Program-made: the position numbers and the translations under genes
The notes under the pieces: model-generated
The model's input: the letters and a program-made list of their open reading frames with translations, nothing else
What the model was told of the DNA's origin: nothing
Database searches by the model: none
Sequence record: PQ416618.1
DNA length: 64,000 nt
From: Escherichia phage vB_VIPECOMC06
Direction: 5' to 3' (one strand)
Shown here: positions 19,813 to 25,087 of the stretch, one piece after another
Position numbering within the stretch: the stretch's first letter is position 1
Layout of the letters: each line of letters starts with the position of its first letter

Positions 19813-20400
19813 ATGCTTAAATTAGTATTCGCATGCGCACCGTCTAAAACAGTTGATGATAAACTGGAATATGCTTTTGGATTAGGCGATGGACTTCCAT
19901 GGAAGCATATCAAACAAGATATGAGTAACTTTGTTGCTCGCACTAAAAACACTGTAATGATTATGGGTGCTAAGACATTTGCATCATTACCTCGTCTACT
20001 CCCGGATCGTACTCATGTGGTTGTCACTGATATGGCCAGAAAACTGCCTAAGACTAAAACCGACGAACTTGCACATTTCTATATCACCCAAGCAGAATTT
20101 ATTACCTTGGTAATGGGTAGTGAAATTAACTTGTTCAGCCCTTCGACCGACGTACCGTTTAAACTTTCTACTGAACATGTTGATGTCTCGGTTATTGGCG
20201 GTCCTGCTTTATTAAAACAAGCACTGCCTTATGCTGATGAAATTGTGATGACTAAAATCATTAAGAAATGTCGTGTTAATTCCGATGTTCAACTTGATAA
20301 AGATTTCGTCCAAGATATTATGCTTCAACGTTCTATGGTAGAATCTCATTACTACAGAATCGATGAACTCACCGAAATTACTGAGAGCGTATATAAATGA
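19813..20400 (+). CDS. frd: Dihydrofolate reductase
   Basis: 195 aa; matches T4 Frd (…MIMGAKTF…VIGGPALL…). Confidence 0.95.
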
Positions 20401-21257
20401 AACAATACCAATACCTGATTAATGATATCCTAGAAAATGGTTATGAAACTGACGACCGTACAGGTACCGGCACTATTGCCCTATTCGGAACTAAATTACG
20501 TTGGGATCTGACTAAAGGATTCCCTGCGGTAACAACTAAGAAATTAGCATGGAAAGCTTGTATTGCCGAACTACTGTGGTTCATGTCTGGTTCTACCAAT
20601 GTTAATGATTTGCGTATTCGTACTCATGGTAGTCTAATTGAAGGTAAAACTATTTGGGACGATAATTACGAAAATCAGGCAAAAGACCTTGGATATCATA
20701 GCGGCGAACTTGGTCCTATTTATGGTAAGCAATGGCGTGATTTTGGTGGTGTAGACCAATTAGTTGAAACAATCAACCGTATTAAAAAATTACCAACTGA
20801 CCGTCGTCAAATAGTTTCTGCATGGAACCCTGCCGAAATTGACCAAATGGCTCTTCCTCCTTGTCATATGTTCTATCAATTTAATGTGCGTAATGGGCAT
20901 CTTGATTTACAATGGTATCAACGCAGTGTAGATGTTTTCTTGGGCTTGCCATTCAACATTGCCTCGTACGCTGCCTTGACTCATATTGTAGCTAAGATGT
21001 GTAACCTTATCCCAGGTGATTTAGTGTTCTCAGGCGGCAACACGCATATCTACAGCAACCACGTAGAGCAATGCAAAGAAGTTCTTCGTCGTGAACCTAA
21101 AGAGTTATGTTCTCTTGAAATTAATTGGCCTAGTAATTTTGAGAATTGGCCTACAAAAATCCAAATGGACTGGGTTACTGGAACGATGACATATTCTGAT
21201 TTCGTTCTTAAAAATTACGAATCACATCCAGCTATCAAAGCTAAAATGGCGGTATAA
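20397..21257 (+). CDS. td: Thymidylate synthase, uninterrupted (no group I intron)
   Basis: 286 aa continuous ORF; MKQYQ…DRTGTGT…PPCHMFYQF… matches spliced T4 Td. Confidence 0.95.
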
Positions 21258-21258
21258 A

Positions 21259-21600: not shown

Positions 21601-23856
21601 ATGCAAGTAATTAAGAGCAGTGGGGTATCCCAAAATTTTGATGCACAGAAAATTATTCAAGTCTTAACTTGGCAGTGTGAAGGAACACAAATCGACCCGT
21701 ATGAATTGTATGAAGAAATTAAGACCCATCTGGTTGATGGGATGAGCACCAAAGATATCCAGAAGATTTGTATTAAAGTTGCAGCTAACTCGATTTCTGT
21801 CGAAGAACCTGATTATCAGTATGTCGCCGCCAAAGGGCTAATGTTTGCACTCCGTAAAGATGTATACGGACAGTTTGAACCGCCTGCTTTTATCGACCAT
21901 ATTTCTCACTGTGTTAATGAAGGCAAATACGACCCTGAGTTGTTGTCTCAATATTCAGCAGAAGAAATCATTTATCTCGATTCACAGATTAAACATGAAC
22001 GAGACTTTGACCTGACTTATGCTGGTGCTATGCAGCTTAAAGAAAAATATCTAGTTAAAGATAAAACAACTGGGAAGATTTATGAAACTCCACAGTTTGC
22101 TATCATGGCTATTGGCATGGCCTTACACCAAGACGAAACTCATGACCGTTTGAAACATATTATTCGTTTTTATGATGCCGTTTCTACTCATCAAGTTTCA
22201 TTGCCAACCCCAATTATGGCAGGTGCTCGTACTCCGACTCGCCAGTTCTCTAGTTGTGTAGTTATTGAAGCCGGTGATTCGTTAAAATCTATTAACAAAA
22301 CTTCAGCATCAATTATTGAATATATTTCTAAACGAGCTGGTATCGGTATCAACGTTGGTATGCTTCGTGCAGAAGGTTCTAAGATCGGTACGGGTGAAGT
22401 TCGACATACAGGTGTTATTCCATTCTGGAAACATTTCCAAACTGCAGTAAAATCTTGTTCTCAAGGTGGTATTCGTGGTGGTGCTGCTACAGCGTATTAT
22501 CCGATGTGGCACTTAGAAGTAGAGAACCTATTAGTTCTGAAAAATAACAAAGGGGTGGATGAAAACCGTATTCGACATATGGACTACGGAATTCAGATTA
22601 ATGACCTTATGATGGAACGCCTTGGTAAAAATGATTATATTACTTTATTTAGCCCTCACGAAATGTCAGGCGAACTATACTACTCGTTCTTTGAAGATCA
22701 AGATAAATTCCGTGAGCTTTATGAGAAAGCTGAAAAAGACCCGACAATCAGAAAGAAAAGAATCAAAGCACTAGAACTCTTTGAATTGTTCATGACTGAA
22801 CGTTCTGGCACTGCTCGAATTTATCCACAATTCGTTGATAACACGAATAACTACACTCCGTTTATTCGCGAAAAAGCTCCAATTCGTCAGAGTAACTTAT
22901 GTTGTGAAATCGCTATTCCGACTAATGACGTGAATGGTCCTGATGCTGAAATTGGTTTATGCACATTATCTGCTTTTGTATTAGATAAATTTGATTGGCA
23001 AGACCAAGATAAAATTAATGAACTTGCTGAAGTACAAGTACGTGCACTCGATAACCTGTTAGACTATCAAGATTATCCGGTTCCAGAAGCTTTAAAAGCT
23101 AAAAAGCGTCGTAACTTGGGTATTGGTGTGACGAACTATGCTGCATGGTTAGCTTCTAACTTTGCTTCATATGAAGACGCTAACGATTTGACTCATGAAT
23201 TGTTTGAGAGATTGCAATATGGCCTTATCAAAGCTTCAATCAAACTCGCCAAAGAAAAAGGATGTTGCGAGTATTATTCAGACACTAAATGGTCTAGAGG
23301 CGAATTACCTATCGACTGGTACAATAAAAAGATTGACCAAATCGCAGCCCCGAACTACGTCTGTGACTGGGAAGAACTTCGAGCTGAACTCAAAGAACAT
23401 GGAATTCGTAACTCAACGTTGTCTGCACTCATGCCTTGTGAGTCAAGCAGTCAAGTATCGAACTCTACAAACGGGATTGAGCCCCCACGCGGTCCAGTAA
23501 GTATTAAAGAATCTAAAGAAGGCAACTTCCGACAGGTTGTTCCTAATATAGAACATAACATGAGTCTTTACGACTACGCGTGGAAACTTGCTAAGAAAGG
23601 TAATAAACCTTATTTGACCCAAGTTGCTATCATGTTGAAATGGGTGTGCCAATCTGCTTCTGCTAATACTTACTATGACCCTGCAGTATTTGAGAAAGGT
23701 AAAGTGCCAATGTCAGTAATGCTTGACGATCTACTTTACTTCTGGTACTTTGGTGGAAAAAACCTCTACTATCATAACACTCGTGATGGGTCAGGTACAG
23801 ATGACTATGAATTAGAAACACCTAAAGCTGAAGATTGTTCTGCTTGTAAGCTTTAA
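21601..23856 (+). CDS. nrdA: Aerobic ribonucleotide reductase large subunit
   Basis: 751 aa; class Ia RNR alpha motifs; matches T4 NrdA. Confidence 0.95.
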   Translation: MQVIKSSGVSQNFDAQKIIQVLTWQCEGTQIDPYELYEEIKTHLVDGMSTKDIQKICIKVAANSISVEEPDYQYVAAKGLMFALRKDVYGQFEPPAFIDHISHCVNEGKYDPELLSQYSAEEIIYLDSQIKHERDFDLTYAGAMQLKEKYLVKDKTTGKIYETPQFAIMAIGMALHQDETHDRLKHIIRFYDAVSTHQVSLPTPIMAGARTPTRQFSSCVVIEAGDSLKSINKTSASIIEYISKRAGIGINVGMLRAEGSKIGTGEVRHTGVIPFWKHFQTAVKSCSQGGIRGGAATAYYPMWHLEVENLLVLKNNKGVDENRIRHMDYGIQINDLMMERLGKNDYITLFSPHEMSGELYYSFFEDQDKFRELYEKAEKDPTIRKKRIKALELFELFMTERSGTARIYPQFVDNTNNYTPFIREKAPIRQSNLCCEIAIPTNDVNGPDAEIGLCTLSAFVLDKFDWQDQDKINELAEVQVRALDNLLDYQDYPVPEALKAKKRRNLGIGVTNYAAWLASNFASYEDANDLTHELFERLQYGLIKASIKLAKEKGCCEYYSDTKWSRGELPIDWYNKKIDQIAAPNYVCDWEELRAELKEHGIRNSTLSALMPCESSSQVSNSTNGIEPPRGPVSIKESKEGNFRQVVPNIEHNMSLYDYAWKLAKKGNKPYLTQVAIMLKWVCQSASANTYYDPAVFEKGKVPMSVMLDDLLYFWYFGGKNLYYHNTRDGSGTDDYELETPKAEDCSACKL

Positions 23857-23908
23857 GTCTTTTGATTATAATTTACTCATGGATGAGTTAAACTAAGTGA
23901 GAAATATA

Positions 23909-25087
23909 ATGAGTACAGTTTTTAACACACAACAAGTCGATGTTTTGAATGAGCCGATGTTCTTTGGTTCTGGTCTTGGTATTGCGCGTTATGATATTCA
24001 ACGCCATAAAGTTTTTGAAGATTTGACCGAAAAACAATTGTCATTTTTCTGGCGCCCCGAAGAGGTAAACTTGATGTTGGACTCTGCGCAGTTCAATAAG
24101 CTTCCTCAGTTCCAACAGGACATCTTTACAAACAACCTTAAGTATCAATCATTATTAGATTCTATCCAAGGCAGAGCCCCATCTGCGGTACTTATGGCAC
24201 TGATTTCTGACCCTTCATTAGATACATGGGTTGCAACATGGACATTCAGTGAAACTATTCACTCTCGTTCGTATACTCATATTATGCGAAATCTTTATAC
24301 AGACCCATCTAAGGTATTTGATGAAATTGTATTAGACGAAGCAATCATGAAACGAGCTGAATCAATAGGTAAATATTACGATGATGTTCTAGTTAAAACA
24401 CGTGAATGGGAAAATGCTAAAGAAATTTTTAAATGTTTTTCCGAAAATGAATATGATTTGGATGCATATTCAAATAGTCTTATGCATGTGGAAGAATGTA
24501 AACGTGCATTAATGAAGTCTCTTTATCTCTGCTTACACGTTATTAACGCCTTAGAAGCTATTCGTTTTTATGTATCTTTTGCATGTACTTTCAACTTCCA
24601 TAAGAACATGGAAATCATGGAAGGTAATGCAAAGATTATGAAGTTCATCGCTCGTGACGAACAACTCCACCTTAAAGGCACTCAGTACATTATCCGTCAA
24701 CTTCAATCTGGTACTGATGGTGATGAGTGGGTTCAAATTGCTAAAGAATGTGAACAAGACGCAGTTGACATTTTTATGGAAGTAAATAGACAAGAGAAGG
24801 AATGGGCTGCACACCTCTTTAAAGACGGTACATGCCCGGGTATCAATACGCAGAGTATGTGTGCTTTTGTTGATTACTTGACTGTGTCTCGTATGAAACA
24901 GTGCGGTTTGCCATGCCCAATAACTGATGCTCCGACCAAGCATCCGTATCCTTGGATTCGTGAATATCTGAACTCTGATTTAGTTCAATCAGCTCCTCAG
25001 GAAGTTGAAATCAGTTCTTATCTTGTCGCACAAATTGATAATGATGTAGACCAAAATGTAATCAATTCATACAAAAAATATTTCTAA
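23909..25087 (+). CDS. nrdB: Aerobic ribonucleotide reductase small subunit, uninterrupted (no intron)
   Basis: ATG at 23909 gives MSTVFNTQQVDVLNEPMFFG… matching T4 NrdB; track start 23897 is a GTG. Confidence 0.95.
   Translation: MSTVFNTQQVDVLNEPMFFGSGLGIARYDIQRHKVFEDLTEKQLSFFWRPEEVNLMLDSAQFNKLPQFQQDIFTNNLKYQSLLDSIQGRAPSAVLMALISDPSLDTWVATWTFSETIHSRSYTHIMRNLYTDPSKVFDEIVLDEAIMKRAESIGKYYDDVLVKTREWENAKEIFKCFSENEYDLDAYSNSLMHVEECKRALMKSLYLCLHVINALEAIRFYVSFACTFNFHKNMEIMEGNAKIMKFIARDEQLHLKGTQYIIRQLQSGTDGDEWVQIAKECEQDAVDIFMEVNRQEKEWAAHLFKDGTCPGINTQSMCAFVDYLTVSRMKQCGLPCPITDAPTKHPYPWIREYLNSDLVQSAPQEVEISSYLVAQIDNDVDQNVINSYKKYF

Follow-up and report, generated by a model that had tools for sequence, protein, structure and literature searches.

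What does it mean that thymidylate synthase and ribonucleotide reductase genes are uninterrupted in a T4-type phage, when the T4 genes carry introns? The question is raised here by Escherichia phage vB_VIPECOMC06 (sequence record PQ416618.1), of which a stretch of 64,000 nucleotides (nt), referred to below as the window, was analyzed. Its plus strand contains the td gene (20397..21257), encoding a 286-residue thymidylate synthase, and the nrdB gene (23909..25087), encoding the 392-residue small subunit of ribonucleotide reductase. The window comes from a Mosigvirus (RB69/ST0/JS09 group) T4-type phage. Over 20397-25087, the top matches in the phage collection are ST0 and phi25-307 (both 96.3%), followed by many further Mosigvirus genomes at 95-96% nt identity, and no record in that collection is 100% identical to this region. 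We propose that td and nrdB of this phage are, very probably, ordinary intron-minus alleles in which the intron landing sites are still recognizable as empty homing sites. The intron-less state of the two genes is in itself a textbook result that has been known since the late 1980s. Pedersen-Lane and Belfort in 1987, Quirk et al. in 1989 and Sandegren and Sjöberg in 2004 reportedly described variable td and nrdB introns in T-even phages and homing into intron-less alleles.

Are the two reading frames truly uninterrupted? The td product matches the Thymidylat_synt family (PF00303) over the entire model (1-266 of 266; residues 2-286; E 8.6e-98) in one continuous frame. Its alignment to spliced T4 td is gap-free, with 229 of 286 amino acids and 635 of 861 nt identical. 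The nrdB gene was read from the ATG at 23909, which is equivalent to the T4 start and yields 392 residues; beginning instead with the in-frame GTG at 23897 would lengthen the product to 396. The NrdB protein matches the Ribonuc_red_sm family (PF00268; profile positions 9-271 of 281; E 1.5e-37), also in one continuous frame, and shares 334 of 392 residues with spliced T4 NrdB. BLAST alignment with the T4 locus breaks at both T4 intron positions, once at window positions 20944/20949 against a T4 gap of ~1 kilobase (kb) and once at 24582/24585 against a T4 gap of ~600 nt. The T4 exon alignments, which the first-pass annotation had proposed as a check, place the insertion sites exactly, between 20945 and 20946 in td and between 24584 and 24585 in nrdB, and they reveal neither extra DNA nor an intron remnant at these junctions. 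A permissive Rfam scan of 20300-25200 gave no match to the group I intron family RF00028 at E<=1. Because the Rfam gathering threshold missed even the known introns of two intron-bearing loci, scans were judged by E value with a positive control, the td intron of the phage AV110, which was recovered as RF00028 with 36.2 bits and an E value of 2.4e-7. Open reading frames, Pfam, BLAST and Rfam thus agree with the first-pass annotation that both genes are uninterrupted and that the T4 introns are absent. Both enzymes would be made directly, without splicing.

Does the td gene retain the homing site? The T4 td exon junction, …TTCTTGGGT / CTACCGTTTAAT…, corresponds in the window to …TTCTTGGGC / TTGCCATTCAAC… around 20945/20946, and the alignment defines an unoccupied I-TevI-type homing site at 20919..20956 (-27 to +11 relative to the junction; plus strand). 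The first-pass annotation had quoted a 32-mer, CAACGCAGTGTAGATGTTTTCTTGGGCTTGCC, as resembling the I-TevI site; this sequence lies at 20919-20950 and is the true homologue of the T4 site. The cleavage motif CAACG (CNNNG with C1 and G5 kept) is identical to that of T4 at all five positions (20919-20923). Its G lies at -23 from the junction, and the native 23/25-nt distance is preserved with no insertions or deletions relative to T4. Overall, 30 of 38 positions match T4, with 12 of 15 in the 15-base-pair (bp) spacer and 15 of 20 in the 20-bp primary binding region. The differences fall at -21, -20, -19, -1, +1, +3, +6 and +9 and are all synonymous; those at -1, +1, +3, +6 and +9 lie in the 20-bp core, where T2 likewise matches T4 at 15 of 20 positions, with mismatches at other positions. 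By sequence, the site is therefore not substantially diverged from that of T4. Cleavage by I-TevI takes place 23/25 nt upstream of the intron junction, and changes at other positions of the site are generally tolerated (PMC2988022); bases C1 and G5 of CAACG are critical (PMC5009752). By the published 23/25-nt rule, the predicted I-TevI nicks would fall between 20922 and 20923 on the top strand and between 20920 and 20921 on the bottom strand. T4, T2 and the window encode one and the same 21-residue protein segment at the homing site. The nt identity of the site to T4 (79%) is barely above the gene-wide value (74%), and the site is conserved because the underlying protein segment is invariant.

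Some features of the td site weigh against an intact landing site. Eight of its 38 positions depart from T4; among them are -1 and +1, in the center of the binding region, and spacer positions 2-4, of which position 2 belongs to the three in the spacer at which single substitutions lowered Tev-TALEN activity. In favor of tolerance, the I-TevI nuclease with its linker cut natural phage td spacers of 53-87% identity to that of T4, with one exception (PMC4065259); a look for published cleavage of RB69-type td sites by I-TevI found none named in the supplements of that study. Do the differences then represent escape alleles, in which synonymous changes (td -21 to -19, -1, +1, +3, +6 and +9; nrdB -2, +5 and +8) confer resistance and explain why the introns are absent? 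Such selection would fit the exclusively synonymous character of the changes, the location of several of them inside the I-TevI binding core and the variation at -1, +1 and +6 among intron-less Mosigvirus alleles. However, neither the critical C1 and G5 nor the spacing has changed, I-TevI has been described as tolerant of sequence variation, and T2, an efficient recipient, has an equal number of core mismatches. Moreover, the -27 to -5 segment is identical in intron-bearing sisters and the window, and third-position drift at a gene-wide identity of 74% suffices for the changes. We consider escape highly improbable, and ordinary intron-minus alleles remain the better description of td.

How does the nrdB site compare? 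The T4 nrdB junction, …TCTTTTGCGT / GTACCTTTAAC…, aligns with …TCTTTTGCAT / GTACTTTCAAC… at 24584/24585 of the window, defining an unoccupied I-TevIII-type homing site at 24555..24599 (-30 to +15; plus strand). No difference from T4 occurs between -30 and -3, and 42 of 45 positions match over the whole site, the three mismatches being at -2, +5 and +8. Both the td and the nrdB sites stay recognizable because they fall in invariant, functionally critical coding segments. The first-pass annotation had paired the nrdB intron with I-TevII, which was a misassignment: the enzyme of the nrdB intron is I-TevIII, of the HNH type, and I-TevII belongs to the nrdD intron. The nrdD gene is not present in the window, in which no glycyl-radical motif was found. 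From the 14/16-bp rule for I-TevIII (PMC1865063), the predicted cut positions 14 and 16 bp upstream of the junction are 24570 and 24568. The T4 I-TevIII is annotated as a deletion relic and is defective. Mobility of the nrdB intron in crosses between T4 and T2 instead depends on MobE, which acts in trans by nicking T2 nrdB at nt 122-126 (PMC2790892). The equivalent MobE target in the window spans 24022..24064 on the plus strand and comprises nrdB nt 114-131, with the nick positions (nt 122-126) at 24030-24034 and the conserved FFWRPEE codons at 24044-24064. Within nt 114-131, the window has the T2 base at eight of the nine positions that differ between T2 and T4 and the T4 base at none. The allele thus looks MobE-sensitive, of the nicked T2 type rather than the immune T4 type. 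The mobE gene is absent from the 52-nt nrdA-nrdB spacer of the window.

A variable stretch lies in nrdB at ~24415-24505 (nt ~510-600; amino acids ~170-200). AV110 and EP02SG share one version that resembles that of T2, and FL31 and T4 each have their own, the T4 version being shorter by 12 nt; conservation on either side amounts to 90-100%. Either a surface loop free of constraint or a mosaic produced by recombination next to the homing site could account for this stretch.

Are these sites genuine landing sites? The most direct evidence is that sister phages carry introns in them. In AV110, a Mosigvirus, 1016 nt are inserted exactly at the td site. This intron shares 90% identity with its T4 counterpart, encodes a 245-amino-acid I-TevI homologue (218 of 245 residues identical to the T4 enzyme) and is 99.7% identical to the td intron of TuIa, likewise 1016 nt long and deposited in 2003-04. 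The td exons of TuIa are window-like, with 299 of 312 nt of exon 2 identical to the window against 205 of 312 identical to T4. In FL31, also a Mosigvirus, 1091 nt are inserted exactly at the nrdB site; this insertion matches the nrdB intron of RB3 at 99.6% identity and encodes an intact 269-amino-acid HNH enzyme. A third Mosigvirus, NRG-P0074, has both introns, with the same lengths (1016 and 1091 nt) and the same kinds of enzyme gene, and, in addition, a free-standing HNH gene upstream of nrdA. The exons of the intron-bearing alleles (td of TuIa, AV110 and NRG-P0074; nrdB of FL31 and NRG-P0074) are 95-96% identical to those of the window, and the insertion positions are the same. Given introns at identical positions in sister phages and the conservation of the sites themselves, the window sites are very probably genuine empty homing sites.

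The exon sequences next to the occupied sites differ from those of the window. At td, the immediate flanks read TTAGGT/CTGCCG in the intron-bearing sisters and TTGGGC/TTGCCA in the window; the -27 to -5 segment of the intron-bearing alleles is of the Mosigvirus type, and they depart from the window at -4, -1, +1 and +6. At nrdB, the immediate flanks are identical to T4 in the intron-bearing sisters but not in the window. Over -75 to +30, intron-bearing Mosigvirus alleles match T4 at 102-103 of 105 positions, compared with 89-96 of 105 in intron-less sisters; beyond +31, all Mosigvirus nrdB alleles compared are ~78% identical to T4. Judged from these sequences, the T4-identical flank is a short co-conversion footprint, and the comparison with the sisters offers a clear natural illustration of how cross-genus intron homing leaves a short co-conversion tract behind. 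Near its 5' end (AV110 locus 2043-2070), the TuIa/AV110 td intron reads TAATTTAGGCCTAGG, where T4 reads TAATTGAGGCCTGAG, and exon position -4 is A in the intron-bearing td alleles and G in the window. The change at -4 and the changes in the intron guide segment, which would be expected to pair with the exon end (P1), look matched.

Could the window have lost an intron rather than never having received one? If the lineage once had one or both introns and lost them precisely, donor-like flanks would be left behind, and among the intron-less Mosigvirus alleles compared, the window nrdB indeed comes closest to T4 over -75 to +30 (96 of 105 against 89-92 of 105). This lead, however, comes to no more than a few bases within a segment of high conservation, the three positions nearest the junction (-2, +5 and +8) are not T4-like, and no remnant of intron sequence is present in the window. 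Recombination between sister phages accounts for the patchiness equally well. Secondary loss is accordingly the least probable of the explanations considered here, even less so than escape, and we retain the reading of td and nrdB as plain intron-minus alleles.

Intron-less alleles are also the common form. In the phage collection, 876 records match the td-nrdB region, with td-intron sequence in 260 and nrdB-intron sequence in 129. Among ~150-170 Mosigvirus-like records, window-type td exons occur with an intron in ~18-20 and window-type nrdB exons with an intron in ~7-9; all of these counts are approximate and include RefSeq/GenBank duplicates. The absence of both introns is therefore the majority state. 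A literature search on Mosigvirus and introns returned nothing specific.

Which phage could fill the empty sites, and how? The precondition would be a cell shared with a compatible intron-bearing relative. At td, an I-TevI-type GIY-YIG enzyme would bind around 20945/20946 and cut at CAAC/G, 23/25 nt upstream. Two routes would be open at nrdB: cleavage by an intact HNH enzyme of the I-TevIII type, 14/16 bp upstream of 24584/24585, or nicking by MobE near 24030-24034. Repair templated by the donor genome would then bring in the intron together with a short flanking stretch of exon. Cleavage and conversion of the window's own sites would be the expected outcome.

The first-pass annotation named T4 itself as this donor: read literally, I-TevI and "I-TevII" would cut in a co-infection, and both T4 introns would home into the phage. 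The td site, with its preserved CAACG and spacing and a binding core as T4-like as that of T2, would accommodate such an event, as would the nrdB 5' region, which is of the T2 type and looks sensitive to MobE; moreover, Mosigvirus genomes have in nature acquired an nrdB intron of the RB3/T4 type whose flanks are identical to T4. The proposed enzymes nevertheless fit poorly, since I-TevII is the nrdD-intron enzyme without a role at nrdB and the I-TevIII of T4 is defective. The exons are only 74% (td) and ~78% (nrdB) identical to T4, which limits homologous repair, and the td intron found among window-type alleles is of the TuIa type (90% identical to that of T4), with no trace of T4's own td intron in the lineage. 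Furthermore, a review of T4-related genomes reports that RB69 excludes T4 and that mixed infections yield only RB69 progeny with no viable recombinants (PMC2993671). The exclusion, reported to be complete, counts against T4 as a donor and also weighs against our main reading of the locus. We regard homing of both introns from T4 as improbable. The claim that this phage is a natural recipient thus holds in part: the sites are potential recipient sites, and T4 is probably not the donor. In view of RB69-type exclusion, exon identities of 74-78% and the TuIa-type td intron, the realistic donors are sister Mosigvirus or RB3-like phages.

The nrdB intron nonetheless points beyond the genus. An RB3-type nrdB intron is found in Mosigvirus at 99.6% identity, against ~78% for the exons (compared with T4), and therefore occasional recent cross-genus homing happens. 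A 2004 paper by Sandegren and Sjöberg is said to speak in its title of "recent transfer of old introns", in agreement with cross-genus transfer. A broader reading, for and against which we see the odds as evenly balanced, is that the window represents the "naive" state of a ~13-kb locus at which members of one genus differ in at least four insertions linked to endonucleases, namely the two introns of td and nrdB, an HNH gene lying ahead of nrdA and a seg-like gene placed between gene 33 and gene 59. On this reading, the presence in Mosigvirus genomes of the RB3-type nrdB intron with its ~100 bp of T4-identical flank would mean that natural transfer of DNA between Tequatrovirus and Mosigvirus is brought about by homing endonucleases. 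If this is true, natural cross-genus movement occurs despite the total genetic isolation of RB69 and T4 reported in the laboratory, and the phage would be a convenient recipient with which to measure the leak. Taken alone, the intron-less alleles have little significance. Their practical value is modest and lies in sites that are mapped to the base and in a possible recipient for crosses with intron-bearing sisters.

The gene order around td and nrdB was read from the list of open reading frames, BLAST against the T4 locus and Pfam. Gene 32 (18101-19000) and frd (19813-20400) precede td. A small conserved open reading frame of 84 amino acids with a DUF5496 domain (21259..21513; plus strand; open reading frame list and Pfam) lies between td and nrdA. 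The nrdA gene (21601..23856; plus strand), annotated as such in relatives, encodes the 751-amino-acid large subunit of ribonucleotide reductase, is uninterrupted and shows 78% nt identity to T4 nrdA across 2.2 kb by BLAST. It is separated from nrdB by the 52-nt spacer (23857..23908; plus strand), which has no insertion in comparison with T4 and EP02SG. Downstream of nrdB lie denA (25114-25524; plus strand) and rnlA (25581-26705), and a hairpin with a UUCG loop (25092-25105) precedes denA, the open reading frame directly after nrdB. The denA open reading frame (136 amino acids, GIY-YIG) was considered as a homing endonuclease and rejected, given that it is the orthologue of T4 denA, endonuclease II, with 78% amino acid identity and the same position. 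A scan of the region for promoters and terminators gave background level only, and no transfer RNA genes were found in the window.

Several neighboring slots hold endonuclease or other genes in one relative or another. In the window, a free-standing seg-like GIY-YIG homing endonuclease gene of 227 amino acids (16654-17337; plus strand) lies between gene 33 and gene 59, and its product has an I-TevI-type C-terminal DNA-binding domain (PF20987; E 5.7e-11). This gene is absent from NRG-P0074 and is covered in only 28 of 170 matching phage records; T4 segG is located elsewhere, between genes 59 and 32. In SSE1 (locus 2693-3328) and NRG-P0074 (locus 8708-9343), a free-standing HNH endonuclease gene of 211 amino acids lies immediately upstream of nrdA, overlaps its start and replaces the stretch equivalent to 21565..21622 of the window. 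Compared with these two phages, this stretch of the td-nrdA spacer and nrdA start (plus strand) has no insertion in the window, where it adjoins a hairpin with a 10-bp stem (21543-21565). The 211-amino-acid protein also has an I-TevI-type C-terminal DNA-binding domain, which shares 36% identity with the C-terminal portion of the seg-like protein of the window. EP02SG carries ~810 nt between nrdA and nrdB, the mobE slot of T4. The insertion was considered as a mobE/hef-type endonuclease and rejected, as its gene (locus 4974-5795) encodes a D12-class N6-adenine DNA methyltransferase of 273 amino acids.

How does the locus compare with those of the known phages? RB69 and other Mosigvirus genomes, among them ST0, phi25-307, PhAPEC2 and Shf125875, share the order frd-td-DUF5496-nrdA-nrdB-denA-rnlA without introns at 95-96% nt identity. 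RB69 is listed without any homing endonuclease gene (PMC2993671). The window, in contrast, has one free-standing seg-like GIY-YIG gene, and therefore this phage is not endonuclease-free, unlike the published RB69. T4 resembles the window in its orthologous td and nrdB genes, the same insertion-site codons and the identical protein segment at the td homing site. It differs in its 1017-nt td intron with I-TevI, its 598-nt nrdB intron with a deleted I-TevIII and a nrdA-nrdB spacer that holds mobE and nrdB.1, neither of which is present in the spacer of the window. T2 is the classical intron-less recipient of crosses with T4, in which its inheritance of I-TevI and I-TevIII reaches about twice the input ratio (PMC2790892). 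Its td (861 nt) and nrdB (1179 nt) genes are uninterrupted and equal in length to those of the window. T2 and the window also have in common an intact CAACG at the same distance from the junction, the same number of core matches to T4, the same type of MobE-target allele and the lack of mobE between nrdA and nrdB, although their site mismatches to T4 are at different positions. The two phages diverge in their relationship to the donor: nt identity with T4 td is 96% for T2 but 74% for the window, and T2 recombines with T4, whereas RB69-type phages reportedly do not.

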